From positions 23,822 to 87,821 of the forward strand of contig JAZOAC010000135.1 in NCBI GenBank assembly GCA_045595285.1: a DNA stretch of 64,000 nucleotides. The letters are read 5' to 3'. The notes under the pieces are model-generated. The model worked only from the letters and a program-made list of their open reading frames with translations. It was not told the DNA's origin and searched no databases. This document shows, piece after piece, positions 11,404 through 64,000 of the stretch (its first letter is position 1; each line of letters begins with the position of its first letter). This DNA is from Kiritimatiellia bacterium. GTDB lineage: Bacteria > Verrucomicrobiota > Kiritimatiellia > RFP12 > UBA1067. The translations under genes and the position numbers were made by a program.

Positions 11404-11472
11404 TTCCTTTTCCTTTCCATTTTCATCTTCATTATAGTTGTTTAGACTCGGGAAGCGTTGAATGCAATCATG

Positions 11473-12933
11473 TCAAACACTCATCTGCCCTTTGATTCTG
11501 CCTACGTTCTTGAAATCAATCTTAGAGACATCCATCTCTGCATCCATGAGATTGCAATTGCATTTCTTCTTCCATGCGCCACGCGTAAAATCGGGGATGT
11601 CCAGAGCCTTCGAACGATTTCTTGCGCTTCGTTCGGAAAGTTCGCAGATCGCGCACCAGGACGCAAGGTCATACACATCCATGTCGAGAGGGAGCCCTCT
11701 CTGCATGCAATATGCCCAACGAAGGTCCATCATGAAGTCCATACCACCATGTCCTCCGGCCTTTTTGACAGTTTCGCCCAGTGCCTTCTGCAACGGATGG
11801 CGATATTTCTCCCTGAGCCTCTCCGTGACATTTTTGTCATAGCATGTGTGTGCCGCCTTCTTCGGCCACTTGTCAAGTTCTTCGAGGCACACCTCAAGAT
11901 GCGGATAACTGCGCATCATCCCTTTTGTCCCGGCAATGAGATTTATACGGGAATATGGACGCGGCGAGGTCACATCGTGCTGAAGCATGATGGTACGGCC
12001 AAGCGCGGTGCGGATCGTCGTCACATTCATGTCGGCCATTGCAAAGCGCTGCGCCCTCCCCGGATTGCCGTCAGGGAGAGTTGCTGCGGCAAACGCCTCG
12101 TACCCCCGCTGCATTCCATCCACGGAAACGAGATAGTCAAAGCGGTCACCTCGGTTTATGCCCATATCCAAGGCTATAGGTCCCAATCCATGAGTGGGAT
12201 ACTGGTTGCCGCCGTGCTTTTCGTTCCAGTAGTTGCGCCAACGCTTTCCCGGCACCTCTTTCCAGGAGAAATCATTGAATATCTGCCAGCGACGGTCGTG
12301 TATGTACGCGCCTTCACCATGGAGAAGATCTCCCAGCATGCCAAGCTTGCAGAGATTGAGCGCCAGCATCTCATACTCGCCATAGCAGCAATTCTCAAGC
12401 TGCATGCAGTGCCGTTTTGTCCGTTCGGCGGTTTCCACAAGTTCCCAGCATTCATCTACGGACATCGCGGCGGGAACTTCGATGAGCGTGTGTTTGCCCG
12501 CTCTCATTGCATACAGCGAAACCGGCGCATGCGCATTCCACGAAGTACAATTGTACACAACATCCACATCCGGATGGTCACACAGCTTCTTGTACGCCTC
12601 TGCGCTCCCGGAATACACCACAGGCCGTTTTCCGGAACGTTCCTCGATGGCTTTTGCACATCTCTCGGCGAACCATGTCCTGATGTCACAAAGCGCGACA
12701 ATTTCAATGCCCGGAATGAAAGGAAGCCGCCGTGCGGCGCAATACCCGCGTTCCCCCAGACCTACAATGCCAACACGGATTTTATCTATCGGAGCACACC
12801 TGAAATTCCGCATCGGCATCCCCTGAACACCGGAGACGCAGGATTGTCCGGCGGCAAACCCGCTCACCACTCCCGACCCCCCGGCCGCCATGGCGATTCC
12901 TTTTATGAATTCGCGTCTATTTGAGTTTTGCAT
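11473..12933 (-). CDS. Tat-exported Gfo/Idh/MocA-family NAD-dependent enzyme, GH109-like
   Basis: 486 aa. Leader NRREFIKGIAMAAGGSG and Rossmann start IRVGIVGLGERG. Size and Tat leader are typical of GH109-type alpha-N-acetylgalactosaminidase-like proteins. Confidence 0.7.
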   Translation of the reverse strand: MQNSNRREFIKGIAMAAGGSGVVSGFAAGQSCVSGVQGMPMRNFRCAPIDKIRVGIVGLGERGYCAARRLPFIPGIEIVALCDIRTWFAERCAKAIEERSGKRPVVYSGSAEAYKKLCDHPDVDVVYNCTSWNAHAPVSLYAMRAGKHTLIEVPAAMSVDECWELVETAERTKRHCMQLENCCYGEYEMLALNLCKLGMLGDLLHGEGAYIHDRRWQIFNDFSWKEVPGKRWRNYWNEKHGGNQYPTHGLGPIALDMGINRGDRFDYLVSVDGMQRGYEAFAAATLPDGNPGRAQRFAMADMNVTTIRTALGRTIMLQHDVTSPRPYSRINLIAGTKGMMRSYPHLEVCLEELDKWPKKAAHTCYDKNVTERLREKYRHPLQKALGETVKKAGGHGGMDFMMDLRWAYCMQRGLPLDMDVYDLASWCAICELSERSARNRSKALDIPDFTRGAWKKKCNCNLMDAEMDVSKIDFKNVGRIKGQMSV

Positions 12934-58537: not shown

Positions 58538-59896
58538 TTAATCCTGTCCTATTAACACTTCCCAATGGCCGTTTTTTGCAGCTCCAACGCGCCGTATTCT
58601 GCCGGCATCGGCAAGCTCCTTTATACGACGTGCGACCGTTCGACGCGGCACACCCATAAGCTTCGACAATTCGTCATAGCTGACAAACGGATCGGCCTTG
58701 AGGTTTGCGATAATTTGCAGTGCCAACGATTCGTTATTTACAGGATTTACAGTGCCACATTTTGTTGGTATCTCAAATATATCATCTGCCCTTTGAGTAA
58801 GTTCCTCAATTTTCATAATGCGGCTTTGCAGAAACCTCTCTATTGAGCGCAGTCTGTCTTGCGGCAAGTTATGGTATTTGTGCCGTTTGAAGCGGAAACC
58901 CTTCAACGCCTTCATGCGCTCAAGCATGCTTTTCGTAATGCCACCCGGAAATCCCAGCCACTTTGAGTATAGCGCAGGCTTTACTCGCGAAACATATTTA
59001 GCCAAATCCCAAAACTCGTCAAGTTTATCGCCAGGACGATAAAGTGCCGGCGAAAACAGTCCGTAACCATTATCGAATATGGGAGCTGCACCAACTATCT
59101 CATTTTTATCATTATCAACCAAATACCCAAAATTTCCGAGATGACGGTCGGTGTTGAAAATGAGTGCGTCAAAGAAGAAAATGTCGGCAAAGCGTTTGTC
59201 TTCCAGAGCTTCTGCCACGTTCATTATTCTTCCCGCTGGCAGATATCCAAACTTATCGCTAGTAAAAATATTGCAGGTCGAACACAAATAGCCTTTAAAC
59301 TTGCTTAGCGAATATTCGACATGATCAAGCCCCATCGCAGCAGCAATCTGTGAAGCATAATATTCGGAATAAGGCTCAAATCCCGTATTGGCAGCTCCAT
59401 CCGTTCCAGATTTGTAAAGAACGACCCTTCCATCGATTCTCCGCCAGCATTTCGCGAGCATTCCATTCGTCGAAAATTCAGGCGAAGATATCCAATCAAG
59501 GCACTCAATGGCAGACCCCATTCCGTTAAAAGCAGTGAGCGCAATCACCTGTGAAAATTCATTATCGTAAAGATTGCAATCCTTCCACGATCCCTTAAAA
59601 TCATTCGGCACCACCCAATGAACATCATTAAGCGATAAGCCGCGGCATATCTCGATTATGCCTCGAACATTTCGTGCATCAAGACCCGTCGCCGCCATTA
59701 ATGCGTCTATGTTACGGCGATTACGTGGCACCACACGACGAGACAGCCACCTCCAAAGATTTTCGTCAGAAACATCGCCCTTAAAATCAAGGGGCAGATA
59801 GCGATTATTCCCTTCATCTACCGAAACAATACGAACTCCTTGCGGTTCAATCCATTCAAACCGCAACAGTTCTTTATCTCGATGCTTCAGAATCAT
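58538..59896 (-). CDS. HipA-like Ser/Thr kinase fused to a C-terminal winged-helix DNA-binding domain
   Basis: 452 aa. Kinase core FNTDRHLGNFGYLVDN and PIFDNGYGLF. The C-terminus SYDELSKLMGVPRRTVARRIKELADAGRIRRVGAAKNGHWEVL is wHTH-like. Confidence 0.75.
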   Translation of the reverse strand: MILKHRDKELLRFEWIEPQGVRIVSVDEGNNRYLPLDFKGDVSDENLWRWLSRRVVPRNRRNIDALMAATGLDARNVRGIIEICRGLSLNDVHWVVPNDFKGSWKDCNLYDNEFSQVIALTAFNGMGSAIECLDWISSPEFSTNGMLAKCWRRIDGRVVLYKSGTDGAANTGFEPYSEYYASQIAAAMGLDHVEYSLSKFKGYLCSTCNIFTSDKFGYLPAGRIMNVAEALEDKRFADIFFFDALIFNTDRHLGNFGYLVDNDKNEIVGAAPIFDNGYGLFSPALYRPGDKLDEFWDLAKYVSRVKPALYSKWLGFPGGITKSMLERMKALKGFRFKRHKYHNLPQDRLRSIERFLQSRIMKIEELTQRADDIFEIPTKCGTVNPVNNESLALQIIANLKADPFVSYDELSKLMGVPRRTVARRIKELADAGRIRRVGAAKNGHWEVLIGQD

Positions 59897-60470: not shown

Positions 60471-60824
60471 TTATCGAGAATGACCTTCCCATAAAGTTCT
60501 TCCTTGTCGCTATTGTAGCACATTATTGCATTGTTCGCCGAATATGGAGAGTCGTCAACACCACAAGTTTTTCCCTCGGCAATGTACATGCCATTCATGT
60601 CGGTTACACCCCTTAAGACAGTGTCCGTTAGGGCGAAAATTCATGCCGAAAAACACACTAACATCGGCATTTGACACATTGTGGCCTAAATCGTCTACAA
60701 CGTGTATTTTAATTTTTGCCAATGCTCCAGACCTTCTCGCTTCGCGGCAAGAAGAATCTTTGCTTAAAGCAAAAGCAGATGTTGCTGTAATTATCAATAT
60801 TGCAATCACAAAAAACATTCTCAT
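60311..60824 (-). pseudogene. small secreted CarboxypepD_reg-like protein, frameshifted
   Basis: ORF 60555..60824 (signal peptide MRMFFVIAILIITATSAFA … KIKIHVVDDLGHNVSNADVSVFFGMN) continues in the +1 frame as FALTDTVLRGVTDMNGMYIAEGKTCG… (ORF 60311..60598). The shift lies near a T4 run. Confidence 0.5.
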
Positions 60825-60843
60825 TTAAGACCGCCTTTCTCTA

Positions 60844-62337
60844 TTACTTTTTCATAGAATCTAAAATTAAAGCCTGTTCGACTGAAATCTTGTTGACACC
60901 AAACCAATTTTCTTCAATATTCCATCCAGACCAATCGGTTGCACCCAATCCTACACCAAGCCCACGTCCTTTGAATAATTCCTGTATTTTCCAGGCTCCG
61001 CCAGATAATGTAAGCTGCCCGACTTCCGCATTTGCCAAAACATCCTCTGTCGGGGAATAGCAGTTTACGGCATTGGCGATCCCGGCAAATCTTCCACGCC
61101 ACGAAAGTGATGCACGGAAATCATTTGCCGGGAAAAGCTTGCTCCAATTGGCTGCCAAATAATTGGATGGAACCTTCTCCCATTCTTCATCGCACATGAC
61201 AGAAGAAAACGATCCGTTATCATACGCCTCCATCGAAACTGCCGCATTTAGCATGTAATACTTTGAATAATTGAGTCCGTGATCTTTCGCTGCGGACGAC
61301 ACAAGCATATTGCCAAGAGAATGTGCGAGCATCACTTTCTCTCCGGGAAGATCACGGCAGGACTGCACAAGCGCAGGTGCAGACTGAAAAGCATTCTTCA
61401 CATTGACGTAATAATCTGGCGATATCTGCTTATCCGAGAACATCAACGAGAACTGCGACCCGTCACCTTTCCAGTTCACCGCCGTGAACATGGACTTCAT
61501 GCCCGAAAGCCGCAGGCGCTTGAACATCTGATCGCCCCATTTGCGGGCATCTGCAGGATTTACGTTGTAACCGTGCACAAATACAAAGTGTTGTCCATCG
61601 CATTCCGAATCGGGGAGGTTGTTCGGCTCGTAGAGCCGTGACGGTTCGCCGCCGGTGCCGCCGCAGACGCTGCGGATGTTGAGCCACCGGTACATTTCCC
61701 TTACCGAAGAAATTGATATCGGCATCGGGAATGAGAGGATTGTCTCATCGCCCAACTTCACCCCAAGCGTGACATTCTCATGCGATGCCGCTGCCTCGAA
61801 TGCAAGGATGCCAGGCGCGTTGTCTTCGCCCAAAAGCTCCGATGGATTTATCTGCATTGCGTCATACTGAAGCGCGGTCAATGGCGCGGAATGCAAAGGC
61901 GTGTCAGCGTTTTTCGTAAAAGTATCGTCAGTATATATCTTGCCTGCTTCATTCGGATTCACATCCACGGCACAGTAGCGCATGGCATTTTCGCCGTGTG
62001 CGGAGAGCTCGAACTTGACCGACGATCCCCACGCATCGATGAACGGCTTCAGGTCGAGCCTTGCGGCAAAAAGGTTCACAAGGTCGTACCTTCCATTCAC
62101 AACGCCGTCGGCGGCGTTTCGCGCATTATATGCATAACGGACAAGATAGATAGTACCCCATTCTGAAAGAATGTTGTCGAAAGAATCGTATGTGTGGAAG
62201 ATAGTGTTGCATAGTACATCAATTGTTTCGACACTATTGCCGAATTTGTCGTATGCATACGATCCAAGGACAATTAAATCATCATTGGCACCCGTAATTT
62301 TATTATGCTTGATGCAACCTCTGCAAAACATGTCCAC
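60844..62337 (-). CDS. YD-repeat-containing protein with C-terminal alpha/beta-hydrolase (lipase/esterase-like) domain; possible orphan polymorphic-toxin module
   Basis: 497 aa. N-terminal YD repeats SYAYDKFGNSVE and HTYDSFDNILSEWG. The hydrolase part carries HFVFVHGYNVNP and the nucleophile elbow LAHSLGN. The ORF-track start is a GTG; ATG-TTT-TGC follows 2 codons later. Confidence 0.65.
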   Translation of the reverse strand: MDMFCRGCIKHNKITGANDDLIVLGSYAYDKFGNSVETIDVLCNTIFHTYDSFDNILSEWGTIYLVRYAYNARNAADGVVNGRYDLVNLFAARLDLKPFIDAWGSSVKFELSAHGENAMRYCAVDVNPNEAGKIYTDDTFTKNADTPLHSAPLTALQYDAMQINPSELLGEDNAPGILAFEAAASHENVTLGVKLGDETILSFPMPISISSVREMYRWLNIRSVCGGTGGEPSRLYEPNNLPDSECDGQHFVFVHGYNVNPADARKWGDQMFKRLRLSGMKSMFTAVNWKGDGSQFSLMFSDKQISPDYYVNVKNAFQSAPALVQSCRDLPGEKVMLAHSLGNMLVSSAAKDHGLNYSKYYMLNAAVSMEAYDNGSFSSVMCDEEWEKVPSNYLAANWSKLFPANDFRASLSWRGRFAGIANAVNCYSPTEDVLANAEVGQLTLSGGAWKIQELFKGRGLGVGLGATDWSGWNIEENWFGVNKISVEQALILDSMKK

Positions 62338-62381: not shown

Positions 62382-63554
62382 TCACCCATTCCCCTTGACG
62401 CGATTATGGTGTTTGCAGAGCATCTGGCAGTTCTTCTCGGATGTATCACCACCTTTCGACCATGCGGTGACATGATCAGCCTCCATCTCTCCAAATGCGT
62501 AGATACGCTTTGCATTCGCCCCGTGCGCCAGTACACAATCTGGGCAATTCGAAATTCCTTTCTCAACGGCGTCTTCTGTCTGTCTTCTGTAAACACGTTT
62601 AGCAACCGCTTCCTTGAATATTCTTATCCTTAAAAGCCTACGATCGGTTTCGCCGCCAAGGATATACTCAAAAATATTTCTCCTGTTCTTGATGATGTCA
62701 TTGTCTGCATCCGCATAAAGAGCCTCCACTCGTGCCCACACTTCGTCAGGAGAGTACGGCTTATCATGATAAACTTCGTAAAGACGCCCCCATTCAACAC
62801 CACGCATTTCATTTTTCACATCCTTGAACACCCCATCAATCCAATTCATCACACTGTTGAAATATGCCGTAATCTCGGCAATATCCGCATTATACTGATG
62901 ATCTTTCATGTAATCCTTAACATGACCTTTAGAGACCCATTCCAAAGCCTTTGCCAAGATGGCCTGTCTTTTCTCGTCGCCATCGACGAAATGTTTCCAC
63001 TTATTCATATTCGCATTGGTCGAATTGCTGAATACTGCTTTAGCGGCAGTTACAAAGGGCCCAGAATATGTCGCATTCAGAAGTTCCTGATCGTTAAGCG
63101 GTTTTCCCGCAATATTGATAGTCCTGAACCAGTCCTTTATTTCAGACTCCGGGTCATCGCCTTCCCCTTCGCAGATATAAATCGTAAGCGGTGTTTTTAG
63201 CAACCATCCATGGTGTGCAGGATCAAACTTGTGCGGCATCCCGTTTGCATCCAAAACATCCAGTTGTCCTGTCACGAACCGCCCAAAACTCGTTATGCGC
63301 TGTTGACCATCCAGAACTTCGTACTCGTCACCGTTCTTCAAAAAGTAAATGAGACCAATTGGGTACTTCTTCAATAGCGACTCGACGACCGCAACATCAT
63401 CCTTACCGTTCGCATAGATGTAATTGCGCTGATACTCCGGCTGAATGACGAGTTTCCCGCTCCAGCCTCTAACACCTTTACCTTCCAGCGTGTTGTAGTA
63501 AAAACCTTTACAGATATCTCCTACGGTTATGTCGGTGCGAAGTTCAGTTTTCAT
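62382..63554 (-). CDS. DUF262 (ParB-like nuclease superfamily) protein fused to an HNH endonuclease
   Basis: 390 aa. IQPEYQRNYIY and VLDGQQRITSFGRF (DUF262 DGQQR motif). C-terminal CPDC … EADHVTAWSKGGDTSEKNCQMLCKHHNRVKGN (HNH with CxxC/CxxH zinc ligands). Confidence 0.8.
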   Translation of the reverse strand: MKTELRTDITVGDICKGFYYNTLEGKGVRGWSGKLVIQPEYQRNYIYANGKDDVAVVESLLKKYPIGLIYFLKNGDEYEVLDGQQRITSFGRFVTGQLDVLDANGMPHKFDPAHHGWLLKTPLTIYICEGEGDDPESEIKDWFRTINIAGKPLNDQELLNATYSGPFVTAAKAVFSNSTNANMNKWKHFVDGDEKRQAILAKALEWVSKGHVKDYMKDHQYNADIAEITAYFNSVMNWIDGVFKDVKNEMRGVEWGRLYEVYHDKPYSPDEVWARVEALYADADNDIIKNRRNIFEYILGGETDRRLLRIRIFKEAVAKRVYRRQTEDAVEKGISNCPDCVLAHGANAKRIYAFGEMEADHVTAWSKGGDTSEKNCQMLCKHHNRVKGNG

Positions 63555-63610
63555 ACAGACTATCCTTTCTTTGAAATTTATCTCCTACAGAAAATGCTGA
63601 GGACTACGAA

Positions 63611-64000
63611 TCACTTTTTATGACGAATAAGAATACGGAAATACGGATACTCACCTCCAATATTCAAATCTTTATTATCATCTCCAATACGAAACTTTAT
63701 TATCTCAAACTGTTCCGGACAGTACTTATCAAGAAATGAGATCGGAACTCCCATAGCTCCATTGTAATCAGATGGAATCGCATCCGTAAATGGCACTTCG
63801 ATAGCATCATAGTTGTCGTATTTCCGATATCCTTTACCCTTCACCTCCTTGTGACGCGAATACTTGATGTTATCCGCCATAGACATAAGTTGCAAGGGCA
63901 AATGCCGCCGACCATGCTCTACATTGGTAAACCATCTGACGCCCGGCACACGAATAAATCCTTCCCGATAGTCGTGTGAATTATAGTAACTGAGAGATTT
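63611..64000 (-). CDS. M.EcoRI-family N6-adenine DNA methyltransferase, 5' end outside the window
   Basis: The frame is open to nt 64000. The C-terminus YRKYDNYDAIEVPFTDAIPSDYNGAMGVPISFLDKYCPEQFEIIKFRIGDDNKDLNIGGEYPYFRILIRHKK closely parallels the M.EcoRI C-terminus as I remember it (…YPKYDNYDAINV…DYNGVMGVPITFL…PEQFELIKFR…PYFRILIKNK). Confidence 0.75.
   Translation of the reverse strand, partial: KSLSYYNSHDYREGFIRVPGVRWFTNVEHGRRHLPLQLMSMADNIKYSRHKEVKGKGYRKYDNYDAIEVPFTDAIPSDYNGAMGVPISFLDKYCPEQFEIIKFRIGDDNKDLNIGGEYPYFRILIRHKK

Follow-up and report, generated by a model that had tools for sequence, protein, structure and literature searches.

An intact BanLI-type restriction-modification cassette of foreign origin in a Kiritimatiellia bacterium, and the shuffling of methylase cassettes beside a constant nuclease

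The BanLI system of Bifidobacterium animalis subsp. lactis is the one studied member of an already catalogued kind of restriction-modification (R-M) module, in which an N6-adenine methyltransferase of the EcoRI family (methylase, M) is paired with a DUF262 nuclease (R). M.BanLI was aligned with M.EcoRI and methylates RTC(m6A)GG (m6A, N6-methyladenine) on one strand only, and its methylation increased transformation efficiency 1.8-fold; R.BanLI is a 43.5 kDa protein, P1vir plating in E. coli was ~10-fold lower, and restriction of phage and plasmid DNA is weak; the authors read BanLI as a degenerate Type IIS system without a second methylase (O'Connell Motherway et al. 2014, PMC3990576). The two genes are BALAC2494_1401 and BALAC2494_1402, and the primers in the supplement give MATPLNR and EEAQGK as the first and last codons of M.BanLI (PMC3990576). 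In a 2026 paper, the RTCAGG restriction endonuclease (REase) listed by REBASE as Type II is a gene annotated 'DUF262 domain-containing protein' (PMC13091528), while the DUF262 relatives SspE, GmrSD and BrxU couple the sensing of DNA modification to binding or hydrolysis of nucleoside triphosphates (NTP) and to HNH-type cleavage (reviewed in PMC12707154). Here we describe a module of the BanLI type in a stretch of 64,000 nucleotides from a Kiritimatiellia bacterium (contig JAZOAC010000135.1, positions 23,822 to 87,821; the whole stretch is called the window), at the end of which a methylase gene is followed by a nuclease gene, both on the minus strand. It is an intact, horizontally acquired two-gene R-M cassette of a kind already catalogued, and what makes it of interest is the shuffling of methylase cassettes in the family against a constant nuclease rather than the pairing itself.

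Both window genes are intact; neither protein is truncated, and none of the catalytic motifs is missing. The nuclease of 390 amino acids (aa) has Pfam matches to GmrSD_N/DUF262 (PF03235, 1.2e-18) and HNH (PF01844, 2.1e-6), and the PADLOC REase_II model PDLC03418 matches it over its full length (3.6e-67, profile positions 8-371 of 372), the PADLOC R-M profiles being derived from REBASE; matches to other DUF262 defence proteins in PADLOC (NsnA, PD-T4-2_A, HEC-05 and HEC-06) were weak. Scans with Pfam, NCBIfam and PADLOC gave no match to a helicase or ResIII, and neither the nuclease nor the methylase fragment inside the window had a match in NCBIfam or in a PDB sequence search. In 46 homologues the QPEYQR, DGQQR and HNH residues are invariant, the latter forming a zinc-ribbon pattern (CPDC...DH...N-C...C..HHN) with C337, C340, D360, H361, N375, C376, C380, H383 and N384. 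In an AlphaFold2 model (pLDDT 85, pTM 0.66), an alpha/beta domain at the N-terminus is followed by a long, helical middle domain and then by the HNH domain. Foldseek comparison with the PDB gave no match below E 0.02 for the model of either protein, and the weak matches of the nuclease were to ParB/Noc/KorB CTP-binding domains and sulfiredoxin (E 0.07-1), Gme HNH and Cas9 HNH, with BrxU at rank 25 (E 1.3); as these are not significant, the fold assignment rests mainly on Pfam.

An earlier note on this DNA had described the protein as a 390-aa combination of a DUF262/ParB-like domain carrying DGQQR with a zinc-ribbon HNH, which open reading frame, Pfam match and translation all confirm. The same note had linked it to GmrSD, BrxU and SspE, and of this link only the shared N-terminal fold stands. 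Like these proteins, the window nuclease has an N-terminal DUF262 ParB/Srx-like domain with DGQQR and a His-Me finger nuclease, and NTP-regulated activity is likely; unlike them, it does not end in DUF1524 (PF07510, not found by Pfam scan) but in the zinc-ribbon HNH of PF01844, it is much shorter than their ~550-700 aa, and nucleases of its type are coupled to an EcoRI-family m6A methylase, whereas the others accompany BREX or phosphorothioation genes or stand alone.

With regard to the methylase, the fragment inside the window matches Pfam EcoRI_methylase (PF13651, 1.2e-34) and the PADLOC MTase_II model PDLC03297 (1.4e-29). The resemblance of its C-terminus to that of M.EcoRI, pointed out in the earlier note, was seen again on alignment (...FEIIKFRIGDDNKDLNIGGEYPYFRILIRHKK, of the same type as ...FELIKFRKGVDEKDLSINGKCPYFRILIKNKRLQK in M.EcoRI), and the full gene, which that note had proposed to recover, could be read from the adjacent contig sequence. 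It encodes 347 aa, begins with MADSTS, contains DEFYTQ and NPPF (residues 155-158), and shares 45% identity along its entire length with genuine M.EcoRI, for which we used an E. coli plasmid sequence adjoining a gene annotated 'type-2 restriction enzyme EcoRI'. The window module thus shares with the Type IIP system EcoRI the methylase family, both motifs and the type of one variable segment (V2 type U4, see below), but its partner is a DUF262-HNH protein instead of a PD-(D/E)XK endonuclease, and its order is M-then-R instead of R-then-M. The methylase had no PDB sequence homologue and no significant fold match, and no solved structure of the methylase family was found. An insert, LMxMxDNxKFS, is common to the methylases of the main clade and absent both from methylases linked to EcoRI endonucleases and from a distant subfamily linked to DUF262-HNH proteins; considered as a nuclease-docking motif, it was rejected as a general determinant because it is missing from that distant subfamily.

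A conserved two-gene unit of foreign origin

In a scan of one genome per species with two peptide patterns only, at least 581 species encode a relative. Of 61 related genomes, 19 hold a copy of the module, some of them up to five. A protein search gave at least 8000 significant matches (8000 of 8000 candidates). For synteny, 80 loci from more than 14 phyla were kept, of which ~76 had enough upstream DNA, and in ~74 of these 76 informative loci an EcoRI-family methylase gene is located directly upstream on the same strand. The commonest spacing between the two genes is -4 (an ATGA overlap) or a few nucleotides, against 56 nucleotides in the window, where the distance given in the earlier note proved exact. 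Isolate plasmids with the same methylase-then-nuclease order come from Pediococcus, Enterococcus faecium, Lactiplantibacillus, Rhodococcus, Arthrobacter, Gordonia, Yimella and Pseudarthrobacter, modules are also found on plasmids carrying resistance genes, and the linkage is kept for nuclease homologues that are only 33-41% identical, in Variovorax, Mammaliicoccus, Aeromonas, Gordonia KTR9 and Sulfitobacter. Among ~50,700 phage records, seven had any match, so that the module is seldom carried by sequenced phages, in comparison with plasmids. From these data it is clear that the methylase and nuclease genes are one conserved unit across phyla, on plasmids and in a few phages. The proposal that they form a single R-M-like unit therefore holds, given the near-universal synteny, the linkage at 33-41% identity, and the methylation and weak restriction reported for BanLI. 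A lack of synteny in other genomes and an ordinary Type IV enzyme beside an orphan methylase had been named beforehand as outcomes that could refute it; the pair is syntenic across phyla, which speaks against both. What does not hold is the implied novelty of the pairing, as PADLOC already models both components (REase_II and MTase_II) and the BanLI-type nuclease is entered in REBASE under Type II.

In the genome of the Kiritimatiellia bacterium the module is single-copy, and has a guanine plus cytosine (GC) content of 44.4% versus 55.1% for the genome. Neither its upstream nor its downstream flank shares anything with the flanks of the module in the nearest relatives, and as the flanks are unconserved, there is no conserved leader at the window module. 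The module was thus acquired horizontally and is foreign to this genome. It resembles BanLI in being a two-gene M-then-R cassette with low GC relative to its host and in mobile contexts, in its EcoRI-aligned methylase, in the size of R (~43.5 kDa, similar to the 390 aa of the window nuclease) and in the DUF262 annotation. It differs in that its motif is probably not RTCAGG, as its V1 segment is of a type (T5) seen only in the nearest relatives. Literature searches for the prototype behind PDLC03418 yielded no paper on the pair, the weak BanLI phenotype being the only published one found, and Bifidobacterium names were absent among the matches of a protein search seeded with a related subclade. 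For this genome, the finding is one more mobile R-M cassette, useful for annotation and a likely barrier to DNA uptake; the BanLI-type family as a whole is among the most widespread R-M modules.

Methylase cassettes V1 and V2

The two proteins were compared across 70 modules, with most loci coming from metagenome bins. The nuclease is 385-391 aa long, a range that includes the window copy, and is evenly conserved at ~70% mean identity. The methylase is 345-426 aa long and has a core that is ~72% identical, broken by two hypervariable segments: V1, located between conserved WLG and WFTN motifs, comes in at least 12 discrete types, and V2, located between CPEQFEI and Y.RILIKHK, in at least 26, and the types of V1 and V2 combine freely. 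The methylases of loci L027 and L038, for instance, have identical first 120 residues and a core identity of 94%, yet their V1 and V2 are quite different beside nucleases that are 94% identical, and V1 and V2 also differ between loci L053 and L055, where the nucleases are 99% identical.

Mean nuclease identity was 0.717 where V1 is shared vs 0.699 where it is not, and 0.7045 vs 0.7015 for V2. On the maximum-likelihood tree of the nuclease, V1 changes 40 times (shuffled 44.5 +/- 1.9, minimum possible 11) and V2 51 times (shuffled 54.5 +/- 1.6, minimum 25). The cassettes thus reassort almost at random on the nuclease tree, and the nuclease does not co-vary with them. Complete isolate plasmids show the same reassortment, including those of Pseudarthrobacter psychrotolerans YJ56, which carries two modules on two plasmids (L096 and L097) with different V1 and V2 and with nucleases that are 71% identical, and this argues against an artefact of metagenome assembly. 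As the same V2 types recur in methylase cores that are only ~38% identical, the cassettes appear to be old, functional modules.

M.EcoRI itself combines V1 type T7 with V2 type U4, and the window methylase V1 type T5 with U4, T5 being otherwise found only in its closest relatives (L003-L005). All five methylases partnered by an EcoRI-family PD-(D/E)XK endonuclease (from E. coli, two Klebsiella, Leuconostoc and Staphylococcus, with endonucleases that are 63-91% identical) are T7 plus U4, which suggests that the cassettes stay fixed where sequence recognition is a matter for the partner, in contrast to the shuffled cassettes of the BanLI-type modules. The different motifs of M.EcoRI (GAATTC) and M.BanLI (RTCAGG) also make these two members of one methylase family with different specificities, and V1 and V2 are the putative determinants of DNA specificity. 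In M.EcoRI, H235 controls DNA intercalation and specificity or discrimination (PMC2396439); this residue is located 11 residues after V1, and C223 and W225 are at the edge of V1. The AlphaFold2 model of the window methylase is confident (pLDDT 84.9) except in V1, and the Nanomotif supplements contain no motif assignment for PF13651.

Readings of how the module works

The reading that we favour, and to which we give an even chance, is that sequence recognition lies with the methylase alone, while the nuclease is an NTP-gated effector without specificity of its own that is recruited or licensed by the methylase. As the only sequence reader, the EcoRI-family methylase would place m6A marks on host DNA at a site set jointly by V1 and V2, and by analogy with BanLI this site may be asymmetric and marked on one strand only. 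At unmethylated sites the methylase would recruit or license the DUF262-HNH protein, the ParB-like domain of which may serve as an NTP-operated switch (by dimerisation, clamping or sliding) before the HNH domain cuts. Such logic would be nearer to that of Type I and Type III systems, with a constant R and an exchangeable specificity in Mod or S, than to classical Type II, and a methylase that is the sole reader would account for the tolerance of BanLI towards an asymmetric site methylated on one strand only. The likeness to Type III (EcoP15I, Mod plus Res) is one of working only: in both, the nuclease/NTPase subunit stays constant and the methylase carries the specificity module, the methylase gene leads a two-gene operon and, as reported for BanLI, an asymmetric site is methylated on one strand, whereas the window R has neither an SF2 helicase nor a PD-(D/E)XK domain, and the methylase is of the gamma-class EcoRI family and not a beta-class Mod. 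A further step, which we take more tentatively and hold at somewhat below an even chance, is that the mechanism of the BanLI-type pairs is not that of Type II at all, and that they are an unrecognised R-M class, in which a monomeric two-cassette methylase would be the sole specificity subunit and would direct a ParB-fold NTP switch and HNH nuclease.

Several points weigh against reading the methylase as the sole specificity component. No result here shows a physical complex of methylase and nuclease, and genuine fusions of the two are lacking: a search with the concatenated M and R sequences did find proteins of 730-771 aa with all three domains, and fusion proteins were considered as evidence of interaction and rejected, as all four apparent ones are products of frameshifted or deleted junctions. 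Identities of the nuclease and of the methylase core correlate weakly (rho 0.28), and their trees are weakly congruent. The specificity role of the cassettes is inferred, with no solved structure that puts V1 or V2 on DNA, and both REBASE and PADLOC class the nuclease as Type II, which usually implies a recognition of its own. Chimeras across a conserved gene are conceivable for metagenome-bin loci, and the isolate plasmids agree with the other loci, but at a lower nuclease identity (81-83%). Finally, the likeness to BanLI rests on the two papers (PMC3990576 and PMC13091528) and on shared architecture.

The first alternative is a classical Type II system (IIP or IIS), in which the nuclease reads one fixed sequence, all methylases protect that sequence, and V1 and V2 are tolerant surface loops. 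The full-length REase_II match in PADLOC and the Type II label in REBASE would fit such a system, as would the uniformly high conservation and constant length of the nuclease, which are compatible with a single shared specificity. The cassettes, however, are discrete, are kept within type across phyla and are common to cores that share only 38% identity, which argues for a function, and the existence of two motifs (GAATTC and RTCAGG) within the one methylase family also does not fit one fixed target. Moreover, EcoRI-linked methylases keep a single cassette pair over 35% divergence, whereas those linked to DUF262-HNH proteins switch at 1-6% nuclease divergence, and with one-strand methylation of an asymmetric site, as in BanLI, the two daughter duplexes cannot both be shielded from a Type IIS enzyme acting on its own. 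On balance we consider a classical Type II mechanism unlikely.

In a second alternative, resembling SspE, the nuclease itself scans DNA, and m6A switches its NTPase domain off (or on) without any contact with the methylase, so that unmarked DNA is nicked or cut non-specifically. This would agree with the link between modification sensing, NTP and HNH-type cleavage in DUF262 relatives (PMC12707154), and is compatible both with a constant nuclease beside varying cassettes and with the absence of fusions. If any m6A were protective, however, there would be no selection for cassette diversity, and Dam-type methylation would disarm the system; it also leaves the deep and exclusive linkage to one methylase family unexplained, since any m6A methylase would do. 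We therefore regard such a sensor as rather improbable.

A guard or addiction module, in which the methylase protein keeps the nuclease inactive until its loss or inhibition (by plasmid loss or phage anti-restriction factors) frees a toxic nuclease for post-segregational killing or abortive infection, has in its favour the tight translational coupling with the methylase gene first, the frequent carriage on small plasmids and mobile islets, and the only ~10-fold restriction by BanLI. It leaves the diversification of the cassettes unexplained, the 1.8-fold increase in transformation after BanLI methylation indicates that DNA methylation status is read, and as post-segregational killing is general to ordinary R-M systems, no separate mechanism is needed, which makes this explanation very improbable. 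Least credible of all, and rejected on synteny, is a Type IV DUF262 enzyme of the ordinary, modification-dependent sort that has an unrelated orphan methylase as a chance neighbour: membership of the N-domain in the GmrSD_N family and the weak matches to NsnA, PD-T4-2_A, HEC-05 and HEC-06 point in that direction, but the almost invariable position next to a single methylase family, with ATGA coupling, in many phyla and at identities as low as 33%, the lack of DUF1524, a size half that of GmrSD and BrxU, and the suicidal consequence of co-translating an m6A-dependent nuclease with an m6A methylase all speak against it.

If, as in the reading that we favour, the methylase alone sets specificity, the module would be a naturally modular and re-targetable restriction enzyme, in which V1 or V2 could be swapped while the nuclease is kept, and would put the ParB-type nucleotide switch to a new use. 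It would also explain why a single one-strand methylase is sufficient; in this respect the comparative data suggest that a single methylase is the normal state of BanLI-type modules. The textbook M.EcoRI would then be a member of a cassette-shuffling family, the usual partner of which is not an EcoRI-type endonuclease. Should these pairs indeed be an unrecognised class, they would solve the task in a Type III-like way with wholly different components, and would be present in hundreds of species.

Feature coordinates, module variants and neighbouring genes

The coordinates of the module are collected in Table 1. Promoter and terminator scans of the module gave signals no better than chance.

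Table 1. Position of the two genes and of their domains, motifs and variable segments, in window coordinates
Feature	Position	Strand	Remarks
Nuclease gene	62382-63554	-	390 aa plus stop; DUF262/ParB-like N-domain, helical middle domain, C-terminal zinc-ribbon HNH; restriction component of the module
HNH nuclease domain with CxxC...CxxxC zinc ribbon, SNCPDC...EADHVTAWSKGGDTSEKNCQMLCKHHNRVKGNG	62385-62552	-	Residues 335-390; PF01844 at residues 356-389; translation checked
ParB/Srx-like DUF262 core, presumed NTP-binding switch	63165-63467	-	Residues ~30-130; best Pfam stretch at residues 36-96
DGQQR motif	63297-63311	-	Coordinates checked by translation
QPEYQR motif	63426-63443	-	Coordinates checked by translation
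Spacer from methylase stop to nuclease start, 56 nucleotides	63555-63610	-	GGAG and AAGGA purine runs 5' of the ATG
EcoRI-family N6-adenine methyltransferase gene, 3' part	63611-64000	-	Last 129 codons plus stop; gene runs past the window end to 64654
Full methylase, 347 aa	63614-64654	-	Read from the contig beyond the window; equals locus L086:7436-8476
Methylase variable cassette V2, IKFRIGDDNKDLNIGGEYPY	63641-63700	-	Residues 319-338; type U4, same as M.EcoRI
10-residue methylase insert, LMSMADNIKYS	~63857-63889	-	Residues ~256-266
Methylase variable cassette V1, part inside the window	63938-64000	-	Whole V1 at residues ~201-239, 63938-64054; type T5

Elsewhere, some loci carry extra genes between M and R, e.g. 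a second EcoRI-family methylase. Loci with inserted junction genes are L027:2962-3999, L038:3651-3989, L039:3135-3980, L040:3156-4004 and L025:2246-3595; the genes at such junctions, labelled by eye from their translations, are RhuM-like, Bro-N-like, or T5orf172 plus DUF3800-like, and accessory genes seem to insert preferentially at the M-R junction. Two tandem EcoRI-family methylases precede one nuclease at L016:1525-4001 and, in the Variovorax sp. SRS16 plasmid, at L098:788-3511, a layout that would be expected for an asymmetric target with one methylase for each strand. In the Bifidobacterium choerinum plasmid pBC (L101/L102), the nuclease gene ends after ~120 residues beside the chloramphenicol-efflux gene cmx while the methylase is intact, which is an example of decay to an orphan methylase. 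Flavobacterium phage vB_FspS_laban6-1 (H131/H132, 11439-12575) encodes a full-length nuclease homologue (58.5% identical).

In the Kiritimatiellia genome, the R-M pair sits between two paralogous cassettes, at 60555-62337 and 65101-66722 (the latter beyond the window). Each cassette encodes a small lipoprotein-like protein together with a DUF900-like alpha/beta-hydrolase that has YD-like repeats in its N-terminal part. Two segments are common to both flanks, one of 116 bp at 93% identity and one of 319 bp at 68%, and of the two lipoprotein-like genes, the one downstream of the nuclease gene (60555-60824) is truncated; together the cassettes look like an effector/immunity-type array. Finally, the 452-aa product of a gene at 58538-59896 on the minus strand combines a HipA-like kinase core (HipA_C, 4.6e-6) with a winged-helix helix-turn-helix domain at its C-terminus; PADLOC matches this protein as candidate PDC-M03A (8e-15), and the HipA-like gene close to the R-M pair is possibly a toxin or defence gene.

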